Origin: Patescibacteria group bacterium
Lineage (GTDB): Bacteria; Patescibacteriota; Patescibacteriia; Patescibacteriales; UBA12465
Direction: 5' to 3'
Assembly: GCA_041671365.1 (NCBI GenBank)
Contig: JBAZBP010000001.1
Coordinates: 325,518-389,517, forward strand
DNA: 64,000 bases
The notes under the pieces were generated by a model. The model was given only the letters and a program-made list of their open reading frames with translations. It did no database searches and was not told the DNA's origin. Shown one piece after another: positions 950-60,899 of the stretch. Position numbers and translations under genes: made by a program. The first letter of the stretch is position 1. Each line of letters begins with the position of its first letter.

Positions 950-3900
950 ATGAAAAAAATAAAATACATCTTTGGTTTAATAGTTTTTAGTTTATTGTTA
1001 TTTGTTCCGGCACTGTGCCGCGCTATGCCGCCGGGGACGTTACTCTATAGAACATCGGGCGCCGGCAAAATGTATGGTTATAGCGCCGACCCCTTGATTT
1101 ATACGGAGAAGGGAATTTTAAAAGATATTTATGCCGGCCATGTCGGTATGTATATCGGTTCGGAAAACGGAGAAGATTATATTGTGGAGGCAATGAGTAA
1201 CGGAATAGTAAAAACTCCGGCCAAATATTTTGTCAATTCGTCGGCCGGGGAAGTTTTTTTGGGGGCGAAAATTCCGAGTGCGGCTAATGATTTGCAAACA
1301 GCAAAAGTTGTCGCCTTGGCTAAAAGTTTAGTCGGTAAAAATTTAGGCTATGATTTAGATTTTAAATATCAAAAAGGACCAAAGGACGGACAGTGGACCT
1401 GTGTGGGTCTAGCCGAAAAACTATATGAAAGTGCTAATATTTCTAATCCGAATAATTTAGCTGCCCTGGAATACGATTCGAATTATTATGCCGTTGATAT
1501 CACGCCCGACGGGTTTGATAATTATAGCGTCGTTAACGACGCCGGCGATTGTTTTTCCGCTGAACGAGAATATTCCAAAATTGCCCGGAAAAAGAATTTA
1601 CTTATTCCCGCGCCGGAACTGATCGGTTTTAATGTCGGGCTAGAGTATAACGGGGAGCGCTATATTTTTCTGCCTTATACTCAGTTTTTACAAAAAACCT
1701 TACAGTCTGTCGCCGTAGATATTACCGTTGCTTCTGAGTTTACGGGAGAAAATATTCGGGCCGCCCTTAATACCAATATTCTGGCTTTGCGTTGGAGTTT
1801 AATTAATAATCCGCTCTCTACCCTGAAAAATTTAGCTCAATCGGCCGCTACTTTTATTACTCAGACGGCCGTTAAAACCGGTGAACTGGCCAAGAGTTTA
1901 GGCACAAAAATTTTTGGTGAGAATTCGTTGGCGGAAATTACCTTAGATCCTGGAGCGATAAGCGGACCGAATTCGACCAGCACTAAAAAAACTGTTAAGA
2001 CTGCGGCGACCAGCACTAAAAAAACCACAGCAGTTAAAAGCCCTGCGAATTCAGCGGCGCCCGCGTCTTGGCCGGCGGTTAAAGTCAATAAAGCTACCGG
2101 TAATTTTGCGACCACTAAAGTCGTGACTCCAACTAAAACAACTGGCCAAACCTCATCTTCAACTAAAAAAACTAGCGTCGTTTCGTCGACGGTTAAGAAT
2201 ATTGCCGAGACCGCCAGCAAGACACCCTCTGCTAAATCGGCCAGTTCCTCAATAGTTAAGACGGGGGTAAACACTACTTATTATGCTCCTGCTGTTGCTA
2301 GTTCGGCCGCCAGTTCTCGGGGGAGCGGCGGAGGTGGCGGTAGTTCGTCTAATTCGGCCATAGTAGCAAATAATTGGTCTAAATTAGCTAAAATTAATAG
2401 AATATATGCAACCGGAAATAATGATTTTGTAGAATTAATTAATACTACTGATCATGACTTTGATTTAGCCGCCGCCGGTTATCGTTTAGAAAGGGCAAAA
2501 ACGGCGGATGACCCTAGCCTTATCATGCGCTTAGGAGATCTGGACGATGGGCTTTATCCCGGGGGGACAATCATTAAAGCCCATGGTAATTATTTAATTG
2601 CGCGCGCCGATGCTAATCCTTATTATAAAAATCAAGCCGCTGCGATTGCTTTGCGTGATGAATTTTCTTGGACCGGATCCGGCTATACTTTATATTTAGG
2701 CGTGGGGGCGATTAGTTCCAGCGTTGACCCGGACATTATCGATGCTGTCGGTTTTGGTTCCGACGCCACTTTTTTCCAAGGTAGTCGGCCGGCACCGGAT
2801 ATTAATGATAATTATATTTTACGAAGAGCGGCTTCTACCGGAGATAATTTTGTAGATTTTAATTTAGTTTTAACTGATGATCCGGAGGTTCTGGCGGCCA
2901 TGTCTGCCGCTCAATTAGCGACCACGACCGAAGAAATATCCACGTCCACTAATGATGTAGCGACCACGACCGAAGAAATATCCACGTCCACTAATGATGT
3001 AGCGACCACGACCGAAGAAATATCCACGTCCACTAATGATGTAGCGACGACAACCGAAGATGTTGCCTCTAGCAGCGAAAACGTTGCCAGTTCTACTAGT
3101 GGAACCGCTTCGACGACGGAGGCTGTAACTCCGGCGCCGCTTGCTCTAATAAATAAAATATATAGTACCGGCGATAATGATTGGCTGGAACTTTTTAATC
3201 CGACGGATAATGATTTTGATTTAGCAGCCGCTTTCTATCGTTTAGAAAAAACTAAAACCGCGGTTACTCCGAGCTTACTGATGCGCTTGGGTAATCCTGC
3301 CGATGGACTTTATCCTGGAGGAACGATTATTAAAGCCCGTGATAATTATTTAATTGTGCGCGATGATGCTAATGCTTATTATAAAAATCAAGCTGATGCT
3401 ATCGCTCTGCGCGATGATTTTACCTGGGACAACTCGGGTTATACTTTTTATTTGGGAACCGGAGCGATTAGTTCCAGTACTGACGTGAATATCCGAGATT
3501 TGGTCGGTTTTGGCACAGACGCGATTTATTGGCAGGGAGGCGGACCGGCGCCGGCAATTCCCGATAATTATATTTTAAATCGTTTATCGGCGACAAATAA
3601 TAACGCGTCCGATTTTAATTTAATTTTATCGGACGATCCGTCAATTATTTTTAACCCGCAGCCCGACGCTAATTTAAATTTGTTTGTTCAACCGGTTCCT
3701 ATATTATCGTCCGGTTTAACTAATGTTTGGCATTTTAATGAATGCTATGGTTCGGGGCGCTGGGCGGTCGGAAAGTGGGATTGCGCCCAAGAAGTCGGGT
3801 ATACTTATGATAAATTCAGCCGGCCGCTGGATACGCCGGCCAGTCTTAATAGTTTTTCTGCCAGTTTTTATTATAAAAAATCATCCCAGTTTCCGCGTTT

Positions 3901-4903
3901 AGATTTACATTTAACTAATTCCGGCACTGATCATTTATTGATGATTTTAGATCCGGGGATGATAACCATTGAGGGTTTGCCCAATTCTCAGTGGCGTTAT
4001 TATAAAACAGAAATGATGTTTGACGATAATTGGCATCAAGCGACTTTAGTAGTTAATCAAATCGCTGATTATTGGGCGGTCTATATTGATGGACGGGAAA
4101 TAATTAGAGAAAGTTTTTTTGCCGATTTGGCCTCGTTTTCCGGAGTTGAAATGTATGATGATAACGGTTCGGCCTTATTTGATGAATTAGTTATTTGGAA
4201 TCGCCCTTTGGCTTCGACTGAAGTTTTAGCCAATTACTTAACTGATGCGCCTTATAGTCCCTTAATAATTCGTGAACCGCAAAGTGCGCCCGAGTTGCTC
4301 CATTCTTGGAAATTTGAGGAAGATGCCGGCAGCTTAGCGGTTGATAGTTTTAGTAGTTCTACTTTAAGTGTTAATCCTGCCTCTTGGGTTGGTCGCAGCC
4401 ATGATAATTATGCTTTGCGGATAAGTCAAGGGAACAGTTATTCTTTAGATTTTAATGAACCGATAATTTCTCAAGATTTGTCTTTAGCTTTTTGGTGGCG
4501 TAATAGCGCTTATCCGAGTATGGGAAGAATTAATATTAATTTGAATGGCGGTCTTGATGGTGGTTCTAAAATTTTAGCGTTACTGGCCGATTATTATCGT
4601 TTAGGTTATTGGTTTAATAATCAATATGGAATTTTATCGGAGGGGGTTAACGAGGCCGTTCCTTATGATGACGCTTGGCACCACTTAGCCTTAGTTTATG
4701 ATTCGTATCGTTATAAGTTAAATTTCTATGTAGACGGAGAGGTTAAGGCCAGCTCCTCGCTGGTGCGCTTAAAAGACGGAGAAGCGGTTAAACGCTTGGA
4801 AATTTCCAGCGATAATTTTAACACGGAATTAGACGACTTAAATATATATTCCGGAGCTTTATCCGTCGCTCAAATAAGGCAGATTTATTTAGATACTAAA
4901 TAA
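950..4903 (+). CDS. large secreted multidomain surface protein: N-terminal permuted papain-like (YiiX/C92-type) amidase, S/T/K-rich linker, 2 x lamin-tail domain (LTD), 2 x LamG/concanavalin-like domain
   Basis: Signal peptide MKKIKYIFGLIVFSLLLFVPALCRA.
Motif order is His before Cys (GHVGMYIG ... QWTCVGLAEKLYE).
LTD-like INRIYATGNNDFVELINTTDHDFDL and INKIYSTGDNDWLELFNPTDNDFDL.
LamG_3-like endings DELVIWNRPLASTEVLANY and LDDLNIYSGALSVAQIRQIY. Confidence 0.85.
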   Translation: MKKIKYIFGLIVFSLLLFVPALCRAMPPGTLLYRTSGAGKMYGYSADPLIYTEKGILKDIYAGHVGMYIGSENGEDYIVEAMSNGIVKTPAKYFVNSSAGEVFLGAKIPSAANDLQTAKVVALAKSLVGKNLGYDLDFKYQKGPKDGQWTCVGLAEKLYESANISNPNNLAALEYDSNYYAVDITPDGFDNYSVVNDAGDCFSAEREYSKIARKKNLLIPAPELIGFNVGLEYNGERYIFLPYTQFLQKTLQSVAVDITVASEFTGENIRAALNTNILALRWSLINNPLSTLKNLAQSAATFITQTAVKTGELAKSLGTKIFGENSLAEITLDPGAISGPNSTSTKKTVKTAATSTKKTTAVKSPANSAAPASWPAVKVNKATGNFATTKVVTPTKTTGQTSSSTKKTSVVSSTVKNIAETASKTPSAKSASSSIVKTGVNTTYYAPAVASSAASSRGSGGGGGSSSNSAIVANNWSKLAKINRIYATGNNDFVELINTTDHDFDLAAAGYRLERAKTADDPSLIMRLGDLDDGLYPGGTIIKAHGNYLIARADANPYYKNQAAAIALRDEFSWTGSGYTLYLGVGAISSSVDPDIIDAVGFGSDATFFQGSRPAPDINDNYILRRAASTGDNFVDFNLVLTDDPEVLAAMSAAQLATTTEEISTSTNDVATTTEEISTSTNDVATTTEEISTSTNDVATTTEDVASSSENVASSTSGTASTTEAVTPAPLALINKIYSTGDNDWLELFNPTDNDFDLAAAFYRLEKTKTAVTPSLLMRLGNPADGLYPGGTIIKARDNYLIVRDDANAYYKNQADAIALRDDFTWDNSGYTFYLGTGAISSSTDVNIRDLVGFGTDAIYWQGGGPAPAIPDNYILNRLSATNNNASDFNLILSDDPSIIFNPQPDANLNLFVQPVPILSSGLTNVWHFNECYGSGRWAVGKWDCAQEVGYTYDKFSRPLDTPASLNSFSASFYYKKSSQFPRLDLHLTNSGTDHLLMILDPGMITIEGLPNSQWRYYKTEMMFDDNWHQATLVVNQIADYWAVYIDGREIIRESFFADLASFSGVEMYDDNGSALFDELVIWNRPLASTEVLANYLTDAPYSPLIIREPQSAPELLHSWKFEEDAGSLAVDSFSSSTLSVNPASWVGRSHDNYALRISQGNSYSLDFNEPIISQDLSLAFWWRNSAYPSMGRININLNGGLDGGSKILALLADYYRLGYWFNNQYGILSEGVNEAVPYDDAWHHLALVYDSYRYKLNFYVDGEVKASSSLVRLKDGEAVKRLEISSDNFNTELDDLNIYSGALSVAQIRQIYLDTK
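2918..3043 (+). repeat. perfect 42-bp x 3 in-frame tandem repeat (ATTTEEISTSTNDV x3) inside the surface-protein CDS
   Basis: The unit gcgaccacgaccgaagaaatatccacgtccactaatgatgta occurs at 2918-2959, 2960-3001 and 3002-3043. A degenerate partial unit follows from 3044. Confidence 0.95.
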
Positions 4904-4946
4904 AAATGGTTCTATTTATTAAAATTTTATTTAATTTTAGTAAAAA

Positions 4947-4980
4947 ATACCCCAAAGATAAACTCTTTGGGGTATTTAAA
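4947..4980 (+). terminator. intrinsic terminator after the surface-protein gene
   Basis: Hairpin ataccccaaag-ataaact-ctttggggtat followed by a tttaaaa tail. Confidence 0.6.
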
Positions 4981-5031
4981 ATCAGCCTTTTCATCTTGCT
5001 TTTTTTTATCTTTTATTGTAGTATAAAGGCG

Positions 5032-5466
5032 TTATTAGGGTAAGCGGGCGATTACTTCTTTTTTTAAAATAGTTGGTTATTTTAGAATTTGAAGAGGAAA
5101 GTCCGGACTTCAATCCGACGCTGGTAGCGTCGGTAAAACGATAGTGGGTAACGCCCACCGGTCCGTTTCAACGGATTAGGGAAAGTGCCACAGAGACAAT
5201 ACTAATTCTGAAATATTTAACAGAATAAAAGGTGAAAAGTAATTGGATGAGATAGCTCGTTTTCACTGGTTAGTGGAAGCGAGTGAAGGCTACCGATTTC
5301 GGCCTCCGGTGACGGAGTGGCCGTGGTAAACCCTATCAGAAGCAAGAGCAAACTGGTATTTATTTATAAATACCAAGACAAGTAGCTCGCTTGAGCCCGT
5401 TAGTAATGGCGGGCCTAGATAAATGATCGCTAGAACAGAATCCGGCTTACGGCTGCCCTGATAACA
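5032..5466 (+). ncRNA. rnpB: RNase P RNA, bacterial type A
   Basis: Conserved motifs gaggaaagtccgg (P4 5' strand), agtgccacagaga, ggtaacgcccacc and acagaatccggctta (P4 3' strand).
P1 pairing between ttattagggta (5032-) and ggctgccctgataa (5451-5464).
Ends are approximate. Confidence 0.9.
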
Positions 5467-14816: not shown

Positions 14817-17114
14817 ATGTCTTTTGTCCATCTCCACAATCATAGTCATTATTCATTATTAGACGGCTTAACTAAGCTGGATGAAATGATAAACTACGCT
14901 AAAGAACAGGGTTCGCCGGCGGTTGCTTTAACAGATCACGGGTCGATGTATGGCATTATAGAATTCTATCAAAAGGCTAAAAAGGCCGGCATTAAGCCGA
15001 TTATCGGAGTAGAAACATATTTAGTTCCCGGTTCGCGCTGGGATAAAAATACCCGCGATGATCGCGGTTATCACTTATTACTATTGGCTAAAAATTTAGC
15101 CGGCTATCGTAATTTAATAAAATTGGTGTCCCTGGCTCACATTGAGGGCTTCTATTACAAGCCGCGCATTGATTGGGAAATCCTAGAAAAATATCATGAA
15201 GGTTTGATTGCCTCGACCGCTTGCCTGGCCGGGGAAATTCCGCGTTTAATCACCGCCGATAAGTCAGCGGTCGCCGCCCAAAGGATAAAAGAGTATCAAC
15301 AACTGTTCGGCAAGGGTAATTTTTATTTGGAAATTCAGGATCACCCCGAATTAGAGGACCAAATTAAAGTAAATCAGCAGTTGATTAAATTTTCCCGGGA
15401 GTTAAATATTCCATTGATAGCCACTAATGATGTTCATTATTTGCGTAAAGAAGACGCGGAAGCCCAAGATATTTTACTCTGCTTGCAGAATAAGAAAAAA
15501 ATTACCGATACTGATCGCATGAAAATGCTGGGGCATGGCGACTACTCCATGCGTTCCAATGTTGACATGATTAATGCCTTTAAGGAAACACCAGAAGCGA
15601 TTAAGAATACTTTAAAAATTGCGGAAGAATGTAATGTGGAAATTGAATTAGGAAATATTCAATTACCGCATTTTGAAGTACCGGTCGGTTATGACGGAAA
15701 TTCCTATTTACGTAAATGGTGCGAGGAGGGAATTAGTAAACGTTTTCCGGAAGCGGACTCCGAAGTTTTAACAAAAATTAAAGAACGTGTGGACTATGAG
15801 TTGGAAGTTATCGCCAAAATGGGCTGGCCGTCTTATTTTTTAATCGTGGCTGATTTTATTAACTGGGCGAAAGACAATAAAATAGTAGTCGGTCCGGGTC
15901 GCGGCTCGGCCGCCGGTTCGATGGTTTGTTTTTTAACGGGTATCACGAATCTTGATCCGCTTAAATATGATTTGTTGTTTGAACGATTTTTAAATCCGGA
16001 GCGTATTTCTATGCCCGATATCGATATGGATTTTGCCGATATTCGTCGGGCGGAAGTTTTAAATTATGTCGAGGAAAAGTATGGCCATGATCATGTGGCC
16101 CAAATTATTACTTTCGGGACAATGGCCGCCCGAGCCGCCGTTCGTGATGTCGGTCGTGTTTTAGATGAACCCTACGAATATTGCGATAAAATTTCTAAAA
16201 GTATTCCGATGTTCATGAAATTGGACGAAGCTCTTAAGGCCGTTCCCGAGCTAAGAGAAATGTATAGTAAAGAACCGGCCGCTAAGCGTATTTTAGATTA
16301 CGCCAAGCGTTTAGAAGGCGTGGCTCGCCATGCGTCTACTCATGCTTGCGGTGTCTTAATTACCAAGAATCCGTTAACTGAATATGTGCCGATTCAATAT
16401 GCTTCTTCGTCTGATCGCAGTATTATTTCTCAATATTCTTTGCATCCGATTGAGGATTTAGGTTTGTTGAAAATGGATTTTTTAGGTTTAAAAAATTTAA
16501 CAATCATTGAATCAACTCTTAAAATTATTAAAAATACCCGTGGTCTGGAAATAAACATTGATAATATTCCGTTAGACGATCCAGCCACCTATAAATTATT
16601 CCAAAACGGAGAAACAACCGGAGTATTCCAGTTTGAATCAACGGGCATGAAACGCTATCTGCGCGATTTAAAGCCGACGGAATTTGAGGATATTATTGCC
16701 ATGGTCGCTCTATATCGACCCGGACCGATGGAGTGGATTCCTGATTATATCGCCGGCAAGCATCAAACCAAAAAAGTTGTTTATTTGCATCAAAAATTAG
16801 CGCCGATTTTAGAGAAAACTTACGGCGTGGCTATTTATCAGGAACAGGTTATGCAAATCGCCCGTGATCTCGCCGGTTTCACTATGGGACAAGCTGATGT
16901 TTTGCGTAAAGCGATGGGTAAAAAAATTGCCTCTCTTTTGGCCGAACAAAAAGAAAAATTTATCGAAGGATGCGTTAAAAATGGTGTTTATCAGGAGTTA
17001 GGGGAAAAAGTTTTTTCTTTTATTGAACCGTTTGCCGGTTATGGTTTTAACCGCAGCCACGCCGCCTGCTACGCCATGATTGGTTATCAGACCGCTTTCT
17101 TAAAAGCGCATTAG
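14817..17114 (+). CDS. dnaE: DNA polymerase III alpha subunit DnaE, N-terminal 765 codons (PHP, palm and part of fingers), ending at an in-frame TAG
   Basis: PHP start FVHLHNHSHYSLLDG, PDIDMDF, GVARHASTHACGV and FNRSHAACYAMIGYQTAFLKAH. The TAG falls where DnaE orthologues have Tyr. Confidence 0.9.
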   Translation: MSFVHLHNHSHYSLLDGLTKLDEMINYAKEQGSPAVALTDHGSMYGIIEFYQKAKKAGIKPIIGVETYLVPGSRWDKNTRDDRGYHLLLLAKNLAGYRNLIKLVSLAHIEGFYYKPRIDWEILEKYHEGLIASTACLAGEIPRLITADKSAVAAQRIKEYQQLFGKGNFYLEIQDHPELEDQIKVNQQLIKFSRELNIPLIATNDVHYLRKEDAEAQDILLCLQNKKKITDTDRMKMLGHGDYSMRSNVDMINAFKETPEAIKNTLKIAEECNVEIELGNIQLPHFEVPVGYDGNSYLRKWCEEGISKRFPEADSEVLTKIKERVDYELEVIAKMGWPSYFLIVADFINWAKDNKIVVGPGRGSAAGSMVCFLTGITNLDPLKYDLLFERFLNPERISMPDIDMDFADIRRAEVLNYVEEKYGHDHVAQIITFGTMAARAAVRDVGRVLDEPYEYCDKISKSIPMFMKLDEALKAVPELREMYSKEPAAKRILDYAKRLEGVARHASTHACGVLITKNPLTEYVPIQYASSSDRSIISQYSLHPIEDLGLLKMDFLGLKNLTIIESTLKIIKNTRGLEINIDNIPLDDPATYKLFQNGETTGVFQFESTGMKRYLRDLKPTEFEDIIAMVALYRPGPMEWIPDYIAGKHQTKKVVYLHQKLAPILEKTYGVAIYQEQVMQIARDLAGFTMGQADVLRKAMGKKIASLLAEQKEKFIEGCVKNGVYQELGEKVFSFIEPFAGYGFNRSHAACYAMIGYQTAFLKAH

Positions 17115-17126
17115 CCGGTAGAATTC

Positions 17127-18380
17127 ATGGCGGCTCTTTTAACTTCCGATCAAGGCGACACCGATCGTGTGGCGATTGAAATTGAGGAATGCCGCAATAT
17201 GGGCATAAAAATTATGGCCCCGGATATTAACGAATCATACGCCACTTTTACAGTTGTCAGTGCGGGAGAAAAAAATAAAACTATTCGTTTCGGTTTGCAG
17301 GCGATTAAAAATGTCGGCGAACATATTATTACCGAAATTATTCGAGCTCGTAAAGAAGATGGTCATTATCAAGATGTTTTTGATTTACTCCAAAGAATTA
17401 CCGATAAAGATTTAAATAAAAAATCTTTAGAGAGCCTTATTAAAAGCGGTGCACTGGAAAGTTTCGGCGAACGCGGTCAGCTATTGGCCAATATTGAACG
17501 GCTTTTGAGTTTTAATAAAGAATTGGCCCGGTCTAAAGACAATAAGCAAAGCAGTTTATTCGCTGATTTGCCGCAAGTCGAAATAAATCATCTCAGTTTG
17601 AATCCCGCCCCGGCCGCGGAGCAAAATGAAAAATTAGTCTGGGAAAAAGAACTTCTGGGTTTGTATGTCAGCGAGCATCCTTATAATGTTTTCCGTCCTT
17701 ATTTAGTAAATTATGCCCCGCCGTTAGTGTCGTTAAAAAATCATAAAGGAGACGACCGGGTCGTAGTCGCCGGTATTATTTCCACGATTAAAAAAATTAT
17801 TACTCGTAAAGGAGAATCAATGTTGTTTGTTAAATTGGAAGATGCCACCAATACCGTAGAATTATTAATTTTTCCCAGATTACTCAAAGAAAATCCTGAT
17901 TTATGGATAGCCGGGCAGGCAATCATTACCGACGGCAAAATATCGGAAAAAGATCAGGACGTAAAAGTTTTAGTTAATCGAGCTCTTTCCTTAAATCCTT
18001 TGACACCTCAGAAATCAGTTGATGATTTTAAAAAACTTTTGCTCTCTCTGGGGCCGGTTAAGACTAATCGTTATAATAATTATAAATCCAAGCCCAATGA
18101 AACGGTGTCGGTTCTGAAAAAACCTGAAACGATGATCGTGCCCGGCAAATCAACAAAAAACATTTTACGCCTTATTTTTTTACAAGATTTAGCCGCTGCC
18201 GATCGGGAACGCCTTAAAGAAATTTTTTCTTTATTTCCCGGAGGCGACGAAGTGCGTTTAAAAATAATACAGAACGGCGAGGCGCAAATTATTAAAACTG
18301 CTTTTCTAGTCGATAACAATCAGAAATTACGAACTAAATTACAAATAGAATTTTCGACGATGATCAAATTAGTCGAATAA
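17127..18380 (+). CDS. dnaE: DNA polymerase III alpha subunit DnaE, C-terminal 417 codons, same frame as the upstream part
   Basis: Continuous with the upstream ORF through TAG-PVEF-MAALLTSD (compare E. coli KAHYPAEFMAAVMT). Contains IRFGLQAIKNVG and an OB-fold region. Confidence 0.9.
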   Translation: MAALLTSDQGDTDRVAIEIEECRNMGIKIMAPDINESYATFTVVSAGEKNKTIRFGLQAIKNVGEHIITEIIRARKEDGHYQDVFDLLQRITDKDLNKKSLESLIKSGALESFGERGQLLANIERLLSFNKELARSKDNKQSSLFADLPQVEINHLSLNPAPAAEQNEKLVWEKELLGLYVSEHPYNVFRPYLVNYAPPLVSLKNHKGDDRVVVAGIISTIKKIITRKGESMLFVKLEDATNTVELLIFPRLLKENPDLWIAGQAIITDGKISEKDQDVKVLVNRALSLNPLTPQKSVDDFKKLLLSLGPVKTNRYNNYKSKPNETVSVLKKPETMIVPGKSTKNILRLIFLQDLAAADRERLKEIFSLFPGGDEVRLKIIQNGEAQIIKTAFLVDNNQKLRTKLQIEFSTMIKLVE

Positions 18381-18493
18381 TTTCTTGTTAAATTGTTAGA
18401 AATCTAAAATTCTGTTATAATGGAATTGATAAATTAATTAGTCTAATTTTCATCTTCATAAATTTTCATAAAATTTTTAATTTTTTTGTTCTT

Positions 18494-20065
18494 ATGCCTA
18501 GAACTAAATTAGAGAAGGTCGCCACTAAGTCGACTCGCGCCAAAGTTGTAAAAAAAACTGTCATAAAAACTCTTCGTCCCAAAAAAAGAACCAGGTCGAT
18601 TTTGGTCGATGTAATCGAAGATGAGCCAATAAATTCCGATTCGTCCTGGCTGGCGCCGGAAGACAAGTTGGAAACTAAAAATTTAGAACCGCTTGAGGAA
18701 AAAAATGCAGTTTTGGAAACCGAGCTTGCTTCTCAAAAAAAACAGTCCGCGAATAATGAGACTGATACAGAAATTGATCGACAAAAAATTTTTTTTGAAG
18801 GTTTGGCCGCAAAAATAAAAAATAAAGGTCAGGAGTCGGAAAAATCCGAAGAAGGCCAAAAAAAATATCGGAGTGTCGGTCTGTATCGCCGCTTAGTGAT
18901 TAAATTTATAATTTTAGTGAGTATTTTAGCCGTCGTGGTTGTTTATTTTTCTTTTTCAAAATTAACGGTCACTATAAATTTAAAGGGAGAAACAATTAAT
19001 GACAGCCTGCTTTTGAAAGTTGTCGATAATAGCTTTAGTTTGGCCAGCACTAGCGTCGATATGGCTTCGAACTCGGCGGCAACTTCCGCGACCGTTAGCT
19101 TGATCGATCAAAACGATCCGCGAGAAACGGTTAACGGAACTATTAAAGAGATTAATACTAGCGTGGTTAAAACCTATCCGGCTAACGGCGAAACATTTAT
19201 CGGCAACGAAATAGTCGGTCGAGTTAATATTATCAATAACTATAATAAAGATCAGGCTCTCGTGGCTACAACGAGAATACTTAGTCCGGATAATAAATTA
19301 TATCGAATTAAAGAAGCAGTCAATGTTCCGGCCGGCGGACAAGTAGCGGTTGATATTTATGCGGACAAACCTAGCGCGGAAATGGTTAGCGGCGTGACCA
19401 CCTTTACCATTCCCGGATTATGGGCAGGTTTGCAGGATAAAATTTATGCTAAAAATGAGGCACCCTTTACTTTTAGCCAAAAAATAAAAAAATATGTTAA
19501 TTCCAGCGACCTGGCTTACGCGGCTCAAGATATTAATACGACTCTGGTCGCCGCCGCCAAAACTAAAGCCGCTGCCGATAATACTTTGGACCCGAATGTA
19601 GATTGGTTTTATATTACCAACGACCCGGCTATAATTACGATTAACGCTAAAGTGGGTGCTGAACAATCGGAATTTAAGGCTGAGGCGACGGGAAAAATAG
19701 TCGCGGTTTCCTTTTCAAAAAATGAAGTTGCTCGATTAGCCGCCGCTAAATTAAATTTAATTATTCCCGACGGCAAAGAGTTAACGGATTTTAATGCGGC
19801 TAATATTATTTATAGTCTTGATAGCTATGATTCGGTTTCTCGGACGGCGACCGTTAAGGCTACTTTTACCGGTACTATGGTGTTGACTGGCGATTCGGTT
19901 GTTGTCAATCCCGCGCAGCTATTGAATCTTACATCCGATCAAATAGACAGCTATTTAAAAAATCAGCCGGAAATAAGCAGTTATGCTTTAAAGTTTTTTC
20001 CGTCGTTTATAAAAAGAGCGCCGAGTTTAGTGGATCGGATTAAAATTATTATCAGCAAAAATTAA
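18494..20065 (+). CDS. hypothetical single-pass membrane protein (Lys-rich cytoplasmic N-terminus, large extracytoplasmic domain)
   Basis: Long ORF with one TM segment (LVIKFIILVSILAVVVVYFSF). No motif recognised. Confidence 0.5.
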   Translation: MPRTKLEKVATKSTRAKVVKKTVIKTLRPKKRTRSILVDVIEDEPINSDSSWLAPEDKLETKNLEPLEEKNAVLETELASQKKQSANNETDTEIDRQKIFFEGLAAKIKNKGQESEKSEEGQKKYRSVGLYRRLVIKFIILVSILAVVVVYFSFSKLTVTINLKGETINDSLLLKVVDNSFSLASTSVDMASNSAATSATVSLIDQNDPRETVNGTIKEINTSVVKTYPANGETFIGNEIVGRVNIINNYNKDQALVATTRILSPDNKLYRIKEAVNVPAGGQVAVDIYADKPSAEMVSGVTTFTIPGLWAGLQDKIYAKNEAPFTFSQKIKKYVNSSDLAYAAQDINTTLVAAAKTKAAADNTLDPNVDWFYITNDPAIITINAKVGAEQSEFKAEATGKIVAVSFSKNEVARLAAAKLNLIIPDGKELTDFNAANIIYSLDSYDSVSRTATVKATFTGTMVLTGDSVVVNPAQLLNLTSDQIDSYLKNQPEISSYALKFFPSFIKRAPSLVDRIKIIISKN

Positions 20066-20115
20066 CATTAATTTTTAAAAAACGCTTCAATATAAATCGG
20101 GAGCGTTTTTAATTT

Positions 20116-21069
20116 TTAGAATAATCCGAGAAATTTACTTTTTGCCTGGGAGCTTGTTTTTTTTAAATAAATATTATAAGCTTCGGCCGCATTTTTATTG
20201 TGAAAAATAATAGCACTTAAAGCGGCCGCGAGACGAGAGGCGTCTTCTAAGGAGCGTTGATGCAAGTTTCGACCCATGGCTAAACCATTGGTGCCGGAGA
20301 TCTTGATTTGGGCGGAGAGGTCTTCCAATAAGTTTTTGACGGTACGATAACTGCCGCCGACGCAAATAATTTTTGTTCGGCCGGCCGCTTGGGTTGCTTC
20401 TTGAAATTTTTTGGCGGTGGCCAGCCGGTTTTTAAGCGTCACAGGATATTTAACTTTGGCAAAATCAGCATCTAAAGCCGCCGCGACGCCCGCCCCGCCG
20501 GCGATAGTATGAATATTTTCTTCGTTTATTTTGGGGCCGCGCGGATAAACCCAGAGTATGGCGGTCAGTCCGGCCTGATGAGCCTGGTAAACGACTTGAG
20601 CAGCCGCAGCCAACATTTTAGCTTCATATCGTCCGCCTAAGTAGAGGGTATAACCAAGGCCGACAATTTTTAGACCGCTATCTTTTTTAAATTTAATAAT
20701 ATCCGCTACCGACCACCAGAGCCGGCTGGAGTTTGAGGCTTCGCCTTTGTTTAAGTTAGTTTTACCATTCAATTTTACAACATAAGGAACAGATCGATAG
20801 TCTTGGCCGTAACGGGCAATAAGCCCCAGATGAGTAGCCAAAACTCCGTGAGCTGAAGCCGCGGCAATTTTAAATAGATGTTCAGGATCATTATCTTCCG
20901 GGGAAATATCAACTCCGGAAAAGTCATCGTTTAAATGTTCAACTTTTTGGTCCCCGGCAATTAGCAGGAGGCGACCGGTACCGCCTGTCAGGATATGATA
21001 ATTTTTCTGATATTCATTTTTTTGGCTTCCCGGGACGCTCAGGGGTATTTGAATTTTTTGTTTAGTCAT
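20116..21069 (-). CDS. class I aldolase of the DhnA/FbaB (archaeal-type fructose-bisphosphate aldolase) family
   Basis: TIM-barrel-like pattern with LIAGDQKVEH, VVKLNG and DADFAKVKYP (candidate Schiff-base Lys). Family assignment is from motif memory. Confidence 0.7.
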   Translation of the reverse strand: MTKQKIQIPLSVPGSQKNEYQKNYHILTGGTGRLLLIAGDQKVEHLNDDFSGVDISPEDNDPEHLFKIAAASAHGVLATHLGLIARYGQDYRSVPYVVKLNGKTNLNKGEASNSSRLWWSVADIIKFKKDSGLKIVGLGYTLYLGGRYEAKMLAAAAQVVYQAHQAGLTAILWVYPRGPKINEENIHTIAGGAGVAAALDADFAKVKYPVTLKNRLATAKKFQEATQAAGRTKIICVGGSYRTVKNLLEDLSAQIKISGTNGLAMGRNLHQRSLEDASRLAAALSAIIFHNKNAAEAYNIYLKKTSSQAKSKFLGLF

Positions 21070-21135
21070 ATGGAATATTTATAAATTTGTAATAATATGA
21101 TATTATAAGAGCAATGAAAATATTATATCATAAAT

Positions 21136-22038
21136 ATGTCAAAAGAGGAAAATTTTAATAAAGACATTGATTTAAAAAAATATAACGATTCTGACGGTTT
21201 AAGTTTAAATAAGCTTGATTTTGGTTTGTGGTTATCGGAAAATAGAAAAAAAATACGTCAGCTCCTAACCCTTATTCTTATAATATTTTCTGTTTTGATT
21301 TTTTCTTTTTCGGCCTATAATTATTTTATTTATTTTAGCTCCGGCGACTTAAATAATCTGGCGGTCGAGGGCAGCGTGCCAATCTCGCCTCGGCAAGCAG
21401 TGTCCGACTTGGAGGTTGCCCCTCTGCAGGTTTTTAACGGTTTAGAAAGTAGCGATTTGGCGGTCAAGATAAACAATCCGAACGACAAATTCATGGTCAG
21501 TTTTAAATATTGTTTTACTTTGGACAAGCAGAACTTGGCCTGCGATCAAAATTATTTAATGCCCGGCGAAGGGAAGTATATCCTGGCTCTCGGGCAGGCT
21601 TTAAACGGTGATGCTGGCCAGATAGTCTTTAATATTTCTGATATTTCCTGGCAGAGAATCGATATACATTTAATCCCGAATTGGAATGATTATCTCGGCA
21701 GTCATTTAAATTTTCAAGTGACTAATTTAAAATTAACGCCCGCTCAGACGAGCAACTTATCTCAGAAAATCGGTTTGAATATTTTAGAATTTTCTATAAA
21801 AAATAAAACCGCTTACAGTTATTATAAAATACCGCTCAATCTTTTATTTTTTAGCGGTGAAAATTTAGTTGGCGTGCATCGTTTTTTCTTAGAAAATTTT
21901 TTAACCGGAGAGGCCAGGGACGTAAAAATTGTTTGGACCGGTAATTTGCCGAACGTCGACCAGACTCAAGTTCAGCCGGATATTAATTTGCTGGATAGTG
22001 GCGTTTATTTGCCCTATGGTCAAGCAAATTCCCATTAA
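21136..22038 (+). CDS. hypothetical membrane-anchored protein
   Basis: ORF with one TM segment (LLTLILIIFSVLIFSFSAYNYFIYF), directly upstream of the SEDS gene. Confidence 0.45.
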   Translation: MSKEENFNKDIDLKKYNDSDGLSLNKLDFGLWLSENRKKIRQLLTLILIIFSVLIFSFSAYNYFIYFSSGDLNNLAVEGSVPISPRQAVSDLEVAPLQVFNGLESSDLAVKINNPNDKFMVSFKYCFTLDKQNLACDQNYLMPGEGKYILALGQALNGDAGQIVFNISDISWQRIDIHLIPNWNDYLGSHLNFQVTNLKLTPAQTSNLSQKIGLNILEFSIKNKTAYSYYKIPLNLLFFSGENLVGVHRFFLENFLTGEARDVKIVWTGNLPNVDQTQVQPDINLLDSGVYLPYGQANSH

Positions 22039-22043
22039 TATTT

Positions 22044-23150
22044 ATGCTGAGCCGTTTAAAACTTTATATAAAAAATTTTGATTGGATTATTCTGGCCGCC
22101 GTTTTACTGCTGGTCAGTTTTGGTTTGATGGAAATTTATAGTGTCGCCTTGGGACAAAATAGTACTAATTTGCTATTTTTTAAAAAACAGTTAATCTTTG
22201 CTTTTAGCGGTTTTATCGGGTTATTTATTTTTTCTTTTCTTGATTCTTACTTTCTGAAAAGTCTCAGTCGTTATTTTTATTTTTTAAGCGTTATTTTTTT
22301 AGTAGCCGTATTGATTTTTGGTCATAATATTCGCGGTCATCAGGGCTGGATAGTTTTAGCCGGTTTTACAGTTCAACCCGTGGAATTGGTTAAAATTATT
22401 CTTATTTTATTTCTCGCCAATTTTTTTGCTAATTTAGCCACTAAAGTTAAAACTACCAGTCATTTTATTATTTCGACTTTAAGTGTTTGGTTTTTGATTT
22501 TTTTAGTTTTGTTGCAACCCGATCTCGGTTCGGCAATTATCTTGGGATCAATTTGGCTGATCATGGTCATGGCCGCCGGTTTTAATAAAAAATATTTTAT
22601 TATTATTATCATGGCGGTGGCTGTATTTTTCTTCGCTTCCTGGTTCTTAATGTTCAAAGATTATCAAAAAGCCAGAATTGTTAATTTTTTAAATCCCGGA
22701 GCGAATTCTCAGGAATCCGGCTATAACATTTCGCAGGCAATGATTGCCGTCGGTTCCGGCGGTTTAATTGGTAAAGGGGTGGGCGCCGGCTCGCAATCTC
22801 AGTTAAAATTCTTGCCGGAAGCTCATACAGATTTTATTTTTTCGGTTATCGCCGAAGAATTGGGTCTGGTCGGCGTTGTTTTGGTGATAACTTTTTATTT
22901 TATTTTCTTTTATCGTTGTTGGCGAGTTTTACACCAAATCAATAACGATTTCGGCATTTATTTCCTAATTGGCGGGGGTGGCTTGATTTTTGTGCAAATG
23001 TTTATTAATATAGGTATGAACTTGGGAATTATGCCGATAGTTGGCTTACCCTTGCCGTTTATAAGCTATGGCGGCAGTTCCTTGGTGTCCCTCTTAATTT
23101 TAGTGGGAATAATCGAGAATATTATTATTAAATCAAAGATTAGTTACTAA
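22044..23150 (+). CDS. SEDS-family peptidoglycan glycosyltransferase (FtsW/RodA/SpoVE)
   Basis: QPVELVKI, LQPDLGSAI, GSGGLIGKGVGAGSQSQLKFLPEAHTDFIFSVIAEELG and PLPFISYGGSS. Confidence 0.9.
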   Translation: MLSRLKLYIKNFDWIILAAVLLLVSFGLMEIYSVALGQNSTNLLFFKKQLIFAFSGFIGLFIFSFLDSYFLKSLSRYFYFLSVIFLVAVLIFGHNIRGHQGWIVLAGFTVQPVELVKIILILFLANFFANLATKVKTTSHFIISTLSVWFLIFLVLLQPDLGSAIILGSIWLIMVMAAGFNKKYFIIIIMAVAVFFFASWFLMFKDYQKARIVNFLNPGANSQESGYNISQAMIAVGSGGLIGKGVGAGSQSQLKFLPEAHTDFIFSVIAEELGLVGVVLVITFYFIFFYRCWRVLHQINNDFGIYFLIGGGGLIFVQMFINIGMNLGIMPIVGLPLPFISYGGSSLVSLLILVGIIENIIIKSKISY

Positions 23151-23154
23151 ATTT

Positions 23155-23802
23155 ATGACTATTAAATTAGGTGTTCAGGTGCGAGAACCGAAAGAAAAAT
23201 TAAATTCAGATTTTATTCCCGGAGTTTTATATGGCAAGGGGCGAGAAAATCAAAATTTAAAGATTAAAAAAACGGAATTTGATAAAGTTTTTAAAAGCGC
23301 CGGCGAGTCAAATTTAATTGATTTAGACTATGGTACCGGAGCCGTTAAGGTTCTCATTAAAGATACGCAGCGCGATGTCATGAAAAATTTTTTTACTCAT
23401 GTCGATTTCTATCAAGTCAATATGAAAGAAAAAATTATGACGGAAATTCCCCTGCATTTTATCGGAGAATCTAAAGCGATTAAAGAATTGGGCGGTGTCT
23501 TAATTAAAGATATGAGTATTTTGGAACTGGAGTGCTTGCCCGGTGATTTGGTTGATCATATCGATGTAGATATTTCGGTATTAAAAACTTTTGACGATAC
23601 TATTAGAATCAATGATTTAAAATTGCCGTCCGGTATGAGTTTAGTGCATCATACTAATGAAATGATTGCCGCCGTTAGAGAGCCGAAGGTTGAGGCGGAA
23701 CCGGAACCGACTCCGGCGGCCGTGGAGGCGGGAACCGGAACAGCTCCGGTAACAGGCGCCGCGTCAACGGGAGAGGTTAAAAAAGAAACGGACAAAAAAT
23801 AG
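23155..23802 (+). CDS. rplY: 50S ribosomal protein L25/general stress protein Ctc (long form)
   Basis: IPGVLYGKG, a VLIKDTQRD....HVDFYQV pattern, and an acidic/Pro-rich C-terminal tail. Ends with TAG. Confidence 0.85.
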   Translation: MTIKLGVQVREPKEKLNSDFIPGVLYGKGRENQNLKIKKTEFDKVFKSAGESNLIDLDYGTGAVKVLIKDTQRDVMKNFFTHVDFYQVNMKEKIMTEIPLHFIGESKAIKELGGVLIKDMSILELECLPGDLVDHIDVDISVLKTFDDTIRINDLKLPSGMSLVHHTNEMIAAVREPKVEAEPEPTPAAVEAGTGTAPVTGAASTGEVKKETDKK

Positions 23803-23833
23803 AACCAAAACTTAGAAAAACTAAAAATAAGAT

Positions 23834-23860
23834 AAAACCCCGGAATTAGCCGGGGTTTTT
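23834..23860. terminator. bidirectional terminator between rplY and prmC
   Basis: aaaaccccgg-aattag-ccggggtttt. Overlaps the prmC stop codon. Confidence 0.6.
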
Positions 23861-24739
23861 CATTATTAGTAGACGATTTTTTTTAGTTAGATCTTTGTAT
23901 ATTTTTAGTTCGGTTTTTAAAAATATCTTTTTGGCGGCGGTTTTAATTTTTGATGATTGTTTGGAGTCAATTTCGCACAGCACATAAGCGGGGAGATGAA
24001 GTGTTTTTAAATTTTTAAATAATTCTCGGTAATATTTTAAGCCATCCGAACCGCCGTTTAAAGCCAAGCGCGGTTCGCGGCTAATGCTCGGCGATTCTTT
24101 GATTTGTTTCGGGGTTAGATAAGGCAGGTTAGCGGTAATAAATAATCTATAATTCTTTATTTTTTTATGGTTTAGTTTTAAGGGATCCAGCAAATTACCG
24201 CGATAAAATTTTATTTTATTACCTAGTTTATAATTTTTGGCATTTTTTTTGGCAGTATTTAAGGCGGTGTAGGAAATATCGGTGGCCGCAAATTTAGTAT
24301 TTTTAAAAAGAGGGGGGAAGAGGCGCTTTAATTCTTGGGCGACGCTAATAATAATCGCTCCCGAACCCGTGCCGATATCTATTATATATGGTGTTTGTTT
24401 TACATTTAATGTGGTTTTAATATGTTCAATAATTTTATCAACCATCATTTCGGTTTCCGGGCGAGGAATTAAGACGGTCGAGCCGACTATAAAATTTAGA
24501 CCATAAAATTCTTTTTGACCGGTTAAGTAAGCGATTGGCCAATTATTTAAGCGTTTAATTTCTAGTGATTTAAATTTTTTATAGAGCCCGGGAGTTATTT
24601 TCGTTTCCGGGTGAGTTAATACGAATTCTCTGGTTTTATTTAATAAAAAAGAAACGAGAATTTCCGCCTCTAATCTAGGCAAGGAAGATTCTTTAAAAAT
24701 TAGGCTAATATTATATATTTTTTTCTTAAATATTGACAT
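23846..24739 (-). CDS. prmC: release factor glutamine N5-methyltransferase PrmC/HemK
   Basis: SAM motif IIDIGTGSGAI and the catalytic NPPY variant ANLPY. Located next to prfA. Confidence 0.88.
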   Translation of the reverse strand: MSIFKKKIYNISLIFKESSLPRLEAEILVSFLLNKTREFVLTHPETKITPGLYKKFKSLEIKRLNNWPIAYLTGQKEFYGLNFIVGSTVLIPRPETEMMVDKIIEHIKTTLNVKQTPYIIDIGTGSGAIIISVAQELKRLFPPLFKNTKFAATDISYTALNTAKKNAKNYKLGNKIKFYRGNLLDPLKLNHKKIKNYRLFITANLPYLTPKQIKESPSISREPRLALNGGSDGLKYYRELFKNLKTLHLPAYVLCEIDSKQSSKIKTAAKKIFLKTELKIYKDLTKKNRLLIMKNPG

Positions 24740-24826
24740 TTTATGATAAATATAGTAAATTTATTATAATAAATATCGTACATTTATTGTAATTAAATTT
24801 TTCTTTAACAAACAAGGATAAAGATC

Positions 24827-25111
24827 ATGCAAAATACTATTTTTAATTTTATGCCTGACAGAAAGAGTATAGTAAGGTGGATTCTTTTCGGGATATTAAC
24901 AAGTTCTTTCTCGTTTTGCTTTATAATTTCTAATGCTATTAAAATAATCAGGGGGGAAGAGATTTTTTTAGTCTTAGTAACTCCTACCGTTACTTTGCTC
25001 ATTGGGAGCTTGGGGTTTCTGTCTGGAATATTTATTGTTGTTATAAAAGTTGTAGAAATACTTGAGACCTTATATGATAGATTAGTAACAATAGATCAAA
25101 AAATAAAATAA
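24827..25111 (+). CDS. hypothetical small membrane protein
   Basis: 94-aa ORF with 2-3 hydrophobic segments. Lies on the opposite strand inside the prfA-prmC gap. Confidence 0.4.
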   Translation: MQNTIFNFMPDRKSIVRWILFGILTSSFSFCFIISNAIKIIRGEEIFLVLVTPTVTLLIGSLGFLSGIFIVVIKVVEILETLYDRLVTIDQKIK

Positions 25112-25125
25112 TACTGTAGGAGAAA

Positions 25126-25227
25126 ATGAAAATGAAAAAAACAGTTATTGCCGCTAAAGTGATCGTTGCAATTTTGTTAGCTCTTATCATTGCTGCCAAT
25201 GTCGGTAATATACCAATTAAGTTTTAA
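25126..25227 (+). CDS. candidate 33-aa hydrophobic peptide (MKMKKTVIAAKVIVAILLALIIAANVGNIPIKF)
   Basis: Not in the ORF track because it is under 60 aa. A strong SD (taggaga) lies 4-5 nt upstream of the ATG. One TM helix. A terminator follows. Confidence 0.3.
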   Translation: MKMKKTVIAAKVIVAILLALIIAANVGNIPIKF

Positions 25228-25258
25228 CCTGGGCCTTTGGAGCTCATAAGTTGAAACT

Positions 25259-25295
25259 AAACCGTTTGATGACGAAAGTCTAAACGGTTTTTTTA
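25259..25295. terminator. intrinsic terminator (aaaccgttt ... aaacggttt + T-tract)
   Basis: 9-bp stem with a 13-nt loop, followed by tttttt. Abuts the prfA stop codon. Confidence 0.55.
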
Positions 25296-26345
25296 TTATT
25301 TAACCACCTCCGCCTTGGCCGCTTTTTTTAAAGATAAGATCATCTCTTCAATTTCTCCATCCATGATTCTAATGATGCTGTGCCAAGAAATATTAATTCG
25401 ATGATCAGTGACTCGATCCTGAGGAAAATTATAGGTACGAATTTTATCGGCTCGATCGCCGGCACCGACTTGCGTTTGATGAGCGTTGGAGCTGGCCAGT
25501 CGACGTTCAGCTTCTTGCTGAGCTAAAAGTCGGGAACGCAGGACTTGAAAAGCTCGTTCTTTGTTCTGATGCTGGGACCTTTCGGTTTGCGAGCTAACCA
25601 TAATACCGGTCGGAATATGGACCAAACGAACGGCGGAATAAGTGGTATTAACACTTTGGCCGCCCGGACCGCTGGAACAGAAGGTGTCAATCCGGACATC
25701 GCCGGGTTTGATTTCAATATCAACTTCTTCGGCCTCTGGTAGAACCACCACTGTTGCCGTCGAGGTATGAACTCGTCCTTGTTTTTCGGTTTCTGGCACG
25801 CGTTGAACGCGATGCGTTCCGGCCTCGAATTTTAATAGACCATAGGCGCCGTCGCCTTTAACTTCAAAAATAATTTCTTTATAACCGCCGAGGCCGATTA
25901 CGTTGGAATCAATTAAGCTTAATTTCCAATTTTGACGTTCGCAATAACGCGAATACATCCGAAATAAGTCGCCGGCGAATAGAGCGGCTTCATCGCCGCC
26001 TGTACCGGCGCGAATTTCCAGAATAGCATTTTTTTTATCTTTCGGGCTGGCCGGGTGAATTTCTTCTTCTAGTTCCTCGCTTACTTTAATCGCATGAGCG
26101 TTTAATTCGTTTAACTCTTCTTGGGCCATGATTTTCATTTCCGTGTCCGATTCTTGAGAAATTATTTCATTATTTTGTTTAATATCTAAATTTATTTTTT
26201 CCAGCTTTAAAATCAACGTCAGGGCTTTTTTTAAAGCGGCGTGTTCCTGGGAAATCTTTATCAACATTTTTTGATCTTTTAGATTGGCCGGATCCATCAG
26301 TTTTTTTTCTAAATCAGCAAATTTTATCTTAATGTCTTCGTACAT
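25296..26345 (-). CDS. prfA: peptide chain release factor 1
   Basis: GGQ motif SGPGGQSVNTT. RF1-type PxT tripeptide region RVQRVPETEKQGRVHTS. The C-terminus is typical. Confidence 0.95.
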   Translation of the reverse strand: MYEDIKIKFADLEKKLMDPANLKDQKMLIKISQEHAALKKALTLILKLEKINLDIKQNNEIISQESDTEMKIMAQEELNELNAHAIKVSEELEEEIHPASPKDKKNAILEIRAGTGGDEAALFAGDLFRMYSRYCERQNWKLSLIDSNVIGLGGYKEIIFEVKGDGAYGLLKFEAGTHRVQRVPETEKQGRVHTSTATVVVLPEAEEVDIEIKPGDVRIDTFCSSGPGGQSVNTTYSAVRLVHIPTGIMVSSQTERSQHQNKERAFQVLRSRLLAQQEAERRLASSNAHQTQVGAGDRADKIRTYNFPQDRVTDHRINISWHSIIRIMDGEIEEMILSLKKAAKAEVVK

Positions 26346-26472
26346 ATGAATATTCTAATTAATTTATCTATATCGTTTACCAAGCGGTTAATAACAAAAA
26401 CAACTGACGATTATATAATTATTTTAGCATAAATACGCTTAATAATTAAAGCCAGTTGTTTTTTGGGGGCAA

Positions 26473-26808
26473 CTATTTTTTATTTAATTTCACTTGAGCG
26501 ATTTTCTTCAAATCTTTAGTTTTAACGACCACTTCTTTTTTAGCGCGAACTTCAGCGCGGATCGCTCGTTTAACTTTTTTACCCTTTTTGTCTTTAGCGA
26601 CGCCCTCTTTAGCGTTGACTTTAGAGGTGAATTTTTCGACTCGGCGGGCAGTGTCGACTAATTTTTGTTTGCCGGTATAAAAAGGATGACAAGCAGAACA
26701 GAGATCAACTTTAATTTCCGGTTCGGTTGATCCGGTTAAAAATGTATTACCACAGACGCAAGTAACCTTGCAGTTTGGATAGTATTTAGGATGAATATTA
26801 TTCTTCAT
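26473..26808 (-). CDS. rpmE: 50S ribosomal protein L31 with Lys-rich C-terminal extension
   Basis: [10 protein letters not shown]...CVCGN...[13 protein letters not shown] (Cys4 type). About 40 extra K/A/V-rich residues follow the conserved core. Confidence 0.9.
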
Positions 26809-34642: not shown

Positions 34643-35041
34643 ATGTCTCAAATAATTATCGCTTCCGGCCCAGTTATAGTAGAAAATAATAAAGTTTTAT
34701 TAAACAAAGACGAGAAAGATAATTTTTGGAAGTTTTGCGGTGGCCGGATTGAAGAAAATGACGCCAATTTAAAAGATACCGCCAAAAGAGAGGCCAAAGA
34801 AGAAATGGGAATAGAGCTGGAAATATCGGACAATGATCCTTATTTCTTTTATACTGAAAAAGAAAAAGAGGGGAAGATGATTAGCATAGTACTAGTCCAT
34901 TTTCTTGCTAAAAGAAATGGCGAAATAATTCCTGGTCAAGAAACGAAAGAATGGCGCTGGTTTGATGTGAATAATTTAAACGGAGAGAATCTGGCTCCCA
35001 ATATTAAGCCGACTTTAAAATATTTCGGCTTTTTGAGATAA
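34643..35041 (+). CDS. NUDIX hydrolase
   Basis: Nudix box GGRIEENDANLKDTAKREAKEEMGIEL (GX5EX7REUXEEXGU). Confidence 0.85.
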   Translation: MSQIIIASGPVIVENNKVLLNKDEKDNFWKFCGGRIEENDANLKDTAKREAKEEMGIELEISDNDPYFFYTEKEKEGKMISIVLVHFLAKRNGEIIPGQETKEWRWFDVNNLNGENLAPNIKPTLKYFGFLR

Positions 35042-35123
35042 AGTTGTAAAAGGCCTGTTTTTTCATAATCTTCTTTAAAAATTGAAGGTCCTAAAGAAAG
35101 ATTTATCTATATTAAAATATATC

Positions 35124-35164
35124 TTGACACTAAGGTTATCTTTTGTTAAACTATAGTTAACCTT
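35124..35164 (+). promoter_or_regulatory. sigma70-like promoter with flanking 8-bp inverted repeat (candidate TA operator)
   Basis: TTGACA (35124-35129), 17 nt, then TAAACT (35147-35152). The inverted repeat taaggtta (35131-35138) / taacctta (35157-35164) brackets the -10. Confidence 0.5.
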
Positions 35165-35186
35165 AATCATTTAAATTCAAAAATAT

Positions 35187-35402
35187 ATGGAAAGTCTAAT
35201 CGCTCTAAAAGATTTACGACTTAATATGGACAAATATGCCACTGAAGTGAAAGCCGGCAAATCTTTTATTGTTTTAAAACAAAGTAAGCCTCTTTTTAAA
35301 TTAAGCCCCGTCGACGAAGATAGTAGTTGGGAAGAGGTTATTAACTTCGCTAAAATTAAAAAGGGTGGCGTTAATATTGATGAACTTTTAGCTGTTTTAT
35401 AA
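35187..35402 (+). CDS. type II antitoxin (Phd/YefM-like)
   Basis: 71 aa. The N-terminal pattern LKDLRLNMDKYATEVKAGKSFIVLKQSKPLFKLSPV is typical of Phd/YefM antitoxins. The next gene follows after a 4-nt gap. Confidence 0.7.
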   Translation: MESLIALKDLRLNMDKYATEVKAGKSFIVLKQSKPLFKLSPVDEDSSWEEVINFAKIKKGGVNIDELLAVL

Positions 35403-35406
35403 TATT

Positions 35407-35652
35407 ATGGATAAAATCGCTAAAGCGTTAAAAAGTTTGTCAGTAAAAGAAAGAAAAATAATAAAGGGCATTCTTTTAAAAATAAAGAACGGTTCTTTGT
35501 CTGGGCTTGATTTAAAGAAACTGAAAAATTGCGATGATATTTTTCGTGTTAGAAGGGGAAAATTAAGAATAATTTTTAAAAAGCAGAACAATGGTCAATA
35601 TTTCATTTTAACTATTGAGAGAAGATCGGACAAAACATATAATAATTATTAA
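35407..35652 (+). CDS. type II toxin, RelE/ParE superfamily
   Basis: 81 aa. FRVRRGKLRIIFKK...FILTIERRSDKTY resembles the RelE/StbE core. My own reading of the printed sequence puts the stop 3 nt later (35655); the track coordinate is kept. Confidence 0.7.
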   Translation: MDKIAKALKSLSVKERKIIKGILLKIKNGSLSGLDLKKLKNCDDIFRVRRGKLRIIFKKQNNGQYFILTIERRSDKTYNNY

Positions 35653-35685
35653 ATAACCGTTCCAACCATATCACAAGCTCCGAGC

Positions 35686-35725
35686 TATAAAAATAAAACT
35701 AGCACAATGTGCTAGTTTTATTTTA
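35686..35725 (+). terminator. intrinsic terminator after the TA pair
   Basis: ataaaaataaaactagcac-aat-gtgctagttttattttat, extended by the outer pairing tcacaag (35670-35676) / cttgtga (35729-35735). Confidence 0.6.
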
Positions 35726-60890: not shown

Positions 60891-60899
60891 ACCAATAAC

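Follow-up and report, generated by a model that had tools for sequence, protein, structure and literature searches.

A single in-frame TAG divides dnaE in a Candidatus Falkowbacteria metagenome-assembled genome and is replaced by a tyrosine codon in another assembly of the same strain

The 64-kb stretch of DNA analysed here in full (hereafter the window; G+C content 37%) belongs to a metagenome-assembled genome (MAG) of Candidatus Falkowbacteria, an uncultured bacterium of groundwater type in the Patescibacteria or Candidate Phyla Radiation (CPR), and contains a dnaE gene, encoding the alpha subunit of DNA polymerase III (Pol III alpha), that is interrupted by one in-frame TAG. Two open reading frames (ORFs) on the forward strand, the first at 14817-17114 (765 codons plus the TAG) and the second at 17127-18380 (417 aa), lie in the same frame and, read through the TAG at 17112-17114 (codon 766), form a gene of 1187 codons at 14817-18380, in agreement with the coordinates and approximate length that an earlier note on this DNA had given for a full-length DnaE. 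An ORF scan, a match to the public record and Pfam searches assign the PHP, Pol3-alpha palm (NTPase) and finger domains (PF02811, PF07733, and PF17657) to the 765-aa ORF. The in-frame continuation downstream of the stop (17115-18380) encodes the HhH and OB-fold domains (PF14579 and PF01336, found in the 417-aa ORF) and the C-terminal tail. All five domains characteristic of DnaE are present in the normal order, and the protein matches the solved Escherichia coli alpha subunit at 1e-48. Judged by its sequence, this is an ordinary DnaE-type Pol III alpha that keeps all its defining domains and whose frame is mended by the change of one base.

The window sequence is identical to the public record, in which its proteins are listed by NCBI as 'MAG: Patescibacteria group bacterium' (locus tags WC249_; contig of 529,534 nt) and, in addition, by JGI/IMG. 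The gene appears there as two proteins, MFA6995109.1 for the 5' part and MFA6995110.1 for the 3' part, the latter annotated from the ATG at 17127 and described only as 'OB-fold nucleic acid binding domain-containing protein'. In a contig index, exact searches for the 765-aa and the 417-aa product returned no match, and in a collection of 5.8 billion proteins both products come from the MAG itself only.

In the alignment with E. coli Pol III alpha, the TAG falls on Tyr778, within LKAHYPAEFMAA of the fingers domain. The order of the PHP, palm, fingers, HhH, and OB domains is that of the E. coli (PDB 2HNH and 5FKV) and Thermus aquaticus (2HPI) enzymes, and conservation around the site is strong; the window ORF differs from the E. 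coli gene by its interruption at codon 766 and by a phenylalanine at residue 761, where E. coli has tryptophan. The ATG at 17127, in frame and 12 nt past the stop, corresponds to the conserved methionine of the motif PVEFMAALL, which is found in all relatives.

The decisive comparison is with a second, independent assembly of the same strain. Three Logan contigs of read set SRR18595301, reached through exact look-ups of neighbouring gene products, jointly cover window positions 16898-26686 and 35388-64000, a total of 38,402 nt. Over this length, six bases differ between the MAG and Logan, without any insertion or deletion (99.984% identity), and we therefore regard the two as representing one strain. 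The contig that reaches into dnaE (SRR18595301_54946; 9,789 nt, window 16898-26686) has three mismatches to the window, one of them at 17114. It begins 215 nt upstream of the stop, passes through the site unbroken and reads ...AFLKAH-TAT-CCG..., with a tyrosine codon in place of the TAG. Within the shared part of dnaE (16898-18380), position 17114 is the only difference between the two assemblies, with T in the Logan contig and G in the window. The situation is the one expected of an assembly artefact, namely a near-identical second assembly that lacks the stop and differs by one base. The uninterrupted frame that is broken at codon 766 in the window is thus found in the part of the gene covered by the Logan contig, as it is in the sister lineage described below.

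The five other differences have the look of natural polymorphisms that are close to neutral. Two of them are contiguous and lie in prfA, the gene for release factor 1 (RF1), on the reverse strand (25509-25510), where codon 279 is GCT (Ala) in the window and GAA (Glu) in the Logan contig; this is probably a neutral multi-nucleotide polymorphism. Two more are found 4 bp apart in a methyltransferase gene (42280-42876): a T in the window and a C in the Logan contig at 42363, synonymous in codon 28 (Thr), and a T (Leu30) against a G (Val30) at 42367, a conservative change. Both are located about 180 nt upstream of a junction between Logan contigs (42546-42575, 30-nt overlap), which suggests a branch in the assembly graph and real strain microdiversity. 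The last one, at 50561, affects the end of an HI0933-like flavoprotein gene (49331-50563), with TGA in the window and AGA in the Logan contig. The idea that this TGA is another premature stop of the MAG was considered and rejected: the window protein (410 aa) has the usual length of its orthologues, which end at or near ...NAAK as it does, and the Logan version is longer by nine codons (419 aa, with the tail RRPDFVNKR), a 9-aa extension at a variable terminus. Since these five differences look near-neutral, the MAG and the Logan assembly probably represent slightly distinct genotypes within one population.

Relatives of the gene give a similar picture. A search with the DnaE segment recovered 80 related loci, all from Falkowbacteria or Patescibacteria MAGs, and the motif around the site could be read in 79 of them. 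The codon is TGG in 73, TAT in four, TAC in one, and TTT in one, and none of the 79 has a stop. On this alignment, the site is a conserved aromatic position, mostly occupied by tryptophan in the clade. The earlier note had placed the TAG at a conserved tyrosine, which holds for the aromatic nature of the position and for the two closest sequences, both with TAT, but not for the clade as a whole, with tyrosine in only five of the readable loci and phenylalanine in one. For this lineage, its remark that the TAG is a single base away from a tyrosine codon proves correct. Among the 5.8 billion proteins of the collection, the closest one (P0001) shares 92% amino acid identity with the window DnaE and is exactly 1187 aa long; it is encoded on a contig of Logan assembly SRR25490548 (L081) that has the same gene order as the window and TAT at the site. 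The check proposed beforehand, the codon carried by orthologues in sister genomes, thus returned TAT both in the same strain and in this sister, as expected of an ordinary intact dnaE. In the searches made here, the strain is represented by the MAG and one Logan run only: with the variable C-terminal tail as the query, a scan of JGI metagenomes gave no match above 55%, and a protein search with the C-terminal fragment from the Logan contig found no further near-identical fragment.

The gene shows one lesion and no sign of decay. Compared with its L081 counterpart, the window dnaE has 329 synonymous and 93 non-synonymous codon differences over its whole length, and 108 and 58, respectively, downstream of the stop. 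Decay of this downstream half was considered and rejected, on account of the preponderance of synonymous changes and because the same strain also occurs without the lesion. The window DnaE deviates uniquely at four columns that do not otherwise vary in the 36 complete relatives; the most deviant of these has 13 such deviations, so that the window DnaE lies within the range of the relatives themselves. The multiple lesions, relaxed constraint and excess of changes at invariant positions typical of a decaying pseudogene are not seen here, and the strain-level comparison shows the lesion to be very recent. Close to the stop, residue 761 is phenylalanine (TTC, 17097-17099), where all 80 relatives examined at that residue have tyrosine; as the Logan contig with TAT also encodes Phe761, this is a genuine lineage substitution unrelated to the stop. 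Further downstream, at about 17265-17270, a loop is ten residues shorter than in other Falkowbacteria and resembles the short loop of E. coli; the deletion is likely shared with L081, whose gene has the same length of 1187 codons.

In this genome, TAG is a genuine terminator, as gene ends in the window and their orthologues show. Out of 50 ORFs, 35 end with TAA, ten with TGA, and five with TAG, four of the latter in addition to the 5' piece of dnaE. The earlier note had pointed out that TAG ends parB, rplY, and an MFS gene and that prfA is present, all of which we could verify. The ParB and L25 (rplY) frames reach their TAG at the exact end residue of the orthologues in L081 and in a second related contig (L082), which use TAA, and reading past the TAG would add merely 4-10 residues unrelated to the family. 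We also scanned the whole window for genes broken by a stop, in the form of pairs of open segments, each at least 100 codons long, that meet at a single stop. The only TAG case is dnaE, the two TAA cases being distinct neighbouring genes, and no other broken gene or frameshift was found among the approximately 50 genes of the window.

The release factor that reads UAG is also in order. The prfA gene (25296-26345, reverse strand; 349 aa) encodes an RF1 with canonical motifs, a GGQ and a stop-recognition tripeptide of the PxT type, here PET (PAT in E. coli and PVT in Thermus thermophilus). The residue that distinguishes the window RF1 from that of the Logan contig, Ala279, is alanine in both E. 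coli and T. thermophilus, and we rejected on this basis the idea that an E279A change weakens UAG termination; that one of the few differences between the assemblies falls in the UAG-reading factor appears to be a coincidence. A reassignment of TAG to a sense codon in this lineage, or a genome-wide ambiguity of the codon, has nothing for it but the single in-frame TAG in dnaE. Against it stand the ParB and L25 ends matching those of TAA-using orthologues, an RF1 with intact PxT-type and GGQ motifs, and the lack of any other long ORF interrupted by TAG in the window. Within the limits of the 64-kb window, we consider such a code change practically out of the question, in line with the opinion of the earlier note that it was unlikely.

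These observations make it very probable that dnaE is intact and ordinary in the population and that the TAG has no biological function; it is almost certainly not a real biological feature of the organism. Concerning the origin of the G, we lean towards a T-to-G artefact at 17114, arisen in the consensus or base calling, the assembly or the polishing of this one MAG. The true base would then be T, the organism's dnaE would read TAT (Tyr766) and encode an uninterrupted Pol III alpha of 1187 aa, and no recoding, suppression or split polymerase would be involved. An internal-stop 'pseudogene' in an assembly is frequently an assembly artefact (Cooley & Wright 2024, BMC Genomics 25:365, PMC11017572), and such spurious pseudogenes are the closest known phenomenon to the dnaE TAG. 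Another split dnaE of this clade (L098, described below) likewise stems from a homopolymer frameshift and is counted in favour of an error. The likeness lies in the one-base internal stop in a conserved gene, the near-identical assembly without it and the two annotated fragments; the difference is that the cited paper ties these errors to poor or low-coverage assemblies, whereas the assembly of the window is otherwise clean over 64 kb. This last point weighs against an error, given that a MAG with no other frameshift or break in the window is not generally error-prone, and it is not the only one. The G at 17114 may be supported by reads, SRR18595301 may be the MAG's own read set, and the five other differences resemble genuine neutral polymorphisms; a real single-nucleotide variant at 17114 becomes more plausible because each assembly may draw on a slightly different real genotype. 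It is accordingly possible, with about half the weight that we give to an error, that the TAG is a real, functionless nonsense allele present in some cells and picked by the assembler. It could belong to a recent, non-viable or declining genotype, or be carried on one chromosome of a polyploid cell in which an intact copy complements it. In addition to the natural look of the five differences and the lack of any other sign of sequencing error in the MAG, the contig junction next to the methyltransferase variants speaks for this possibility as an indication of real microdiversity. On the other hand, DnaE is essential and a null allele of the sole replicative polymerase is expected to be lethal and, hence, rare; the majority path is the one that assemblers normally take; the Logan contig is unbroken across the site, with no strong second allele retained in that read set; and polyploidy and complementation are unproven for this organism. 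Fixation of such an allele is implausible because the truncated 765-aa product would be deprived of the HhH, the OB fold and the C-terminal tail of an essential enzyme. An error and a minority nonsense allele were the two mundane options of the earlier note, and the TAT codon in the same strain and in the sister lineage lends support to both.

The other two options of that note, site-specific readthrough or suppression and a restart giving two polypeptides, fare much worse. If the TAG allele were real and viable, the UAG could be read through by a suppressor tRNA with a CUA anticodon whose gene would lie outside the window, or by near-cognate tRNA-Tyr or tRNA-Gln in a weak UAG-C context; as a cell needs very few DnaE molecules, the full-length protein made in this way would suffice. 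The stop lies exactly at a sense position one base off a tyrosine codon and is followed by C, UAG-C being a poor termination context in E. coli; moreover, the window contains a tRNA-Gln(CUG) gene, together with a tRNA-Leu(CAA) gene. No tRNA with a CUA anticodon was found in the 64 kb of the genome that the search covered, and one may lie elsewhere. Nevertheless, the stop is not conserved, being absent from all 79 readable relatives and replaced by TAT in the same strain and in the sister, and the 100 nt that begin at 17106 have a folding energy of -29.1 kcal/mol, no better than that of shuffled sequences (z = -0.67), which gives no hint of a stimulatory structure. The intact RF1 with the canonical alanine at its one differing position, the termination of parB and rplY at TAG exactly where their orthologues stop, and the lack of other window genes with an in-frame TAG also argue against readthrough, which we regard as highly improbable; slightly more so is a G allele that is not only real but dominant in the source population of the MAG, with the bacterium kept alive by low-level UAG readthrough of dnaE. 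A mechanism such as amber suppression or programmed readthrough would be required by an in-frame UAG at a sense position of an essential gene, were the allele real and fixed; the window differs from such systems by its unconserved stop, the sense codon in the same strain and the lack, within the window, of a suppressor tRNA and of a downstream structure. Even less credible is a functional split polymerase assembled from residues 1-765 and a product restarted at the ATG at 17127, for which the position of this in-frame ATG 12 nt after the stop can be invoked. The earlier note had remarked on the lack of a clear Shine-Dalgarno (SD) sequence there. That lack says little because SD sequences are rarely used in this genome: SD core matches of at least 4 nt occur in the 20 nt upstream of the start in only five of 45 window genes. 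The 20-nt leaders of these 45 real starts are A+T-rich (mean 82%, minimum 55%, none at or below 50%), which, together with the rarity of SD sequences, suggests SD-independent initiation. The leader of the ATG at 17127, with 50% A+T, is unlike all of them, and this ATG is simply the codon of the conserved methionine of PVEFMAALL. The break would interrupt an invariant helix in the fingers domain, with loss of the conserved PVEF, no relative is split at this site, and an intact TAT allele exists in the same strain. In cyanobacteria, dnaE is also found as two ORFs, DnaE-n and DnaE-c, but at separate loci, each with one half of a split intein that joins the products. By contrast, the window ORFs abut in frame across one stop, without intein or other extra sequence at the junction (the 1187-codon read-through has the length of the L081 gene), and none of the relatives shows the split.

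Two 544-aa C-terminal fragments from different sources also raised the idea that dnaE is split naturally and repeatedly, which was rejected, as one of them results from a frameshift (L098) and the other is cut by the end of its contig (L099). The first is a Falkowbacteria dnaE on a 911-kb contig of long-read style (ENA ERZ21831265, contig ctg82030c), annotated as ORFs of 661 and 544 aa. The break, at L098 positions 4900-5010, is a frameshift within an A-homopolymer, CATAAAAAAAGAAAG, and probably a long-read indel error.

The case is chiefly one of quality control. In the databases, MFA6995109.1 and MFA6995110.1 ought to be treated as a single DnaE whose residue 766 is tyrosine. Records in NCBI and IMG that divide an essential replicase in two swell the counts of pseudogenes or split genes for CPR genomes and can give rise to mistaken notions of recoding or genome decay in bacteria with reduced genomes. 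Assemblies of public read sets such as those of Logan can resolve suspicious single-base lesions of MAGs without recourse to the reads. Should the G allele be real and dominant after all, which is unlikely, it would constitute a natural case of an essential gene dependent on amber readthrough.

Several other features of the window deserve mention. A 926-nt stretch without long ORFs (35041-35967) was examined as a second broken gene, an idea rejected because it holds two small adjacent ORFs (71 and 81 aa, at 35187-35652), which can be read, on sequence alone, as a Phd-like antitoxin and a RelE/ParE-like toxin, a putative toxin-antitoxin-like pair. Next to it, at 35967-36698, a 243-aa protein has a DHHA2 domain only (residues 120-239), with no recognisable DHH domain before it; it is not an assembly break, since the same 243-aa gene is called on the Logan contig. 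Ribosomal protein L31 (26473-26808, reverse strand; 111 aa) matches the Pfam L31 domain over residues 1-63 and has a C-terminal extension of about 48 aa. At 950-4903, a gene for a 1317-aa protein with lamin-tail and LamG-like domains adjoins the RNase P RNA gene (5036-5464). Finally, two large adjacent proteins (725 and 569 aa) encoded at 58713-62609, inside a glycosyltransferase/polysaccharide cluster, have no Pfam match.

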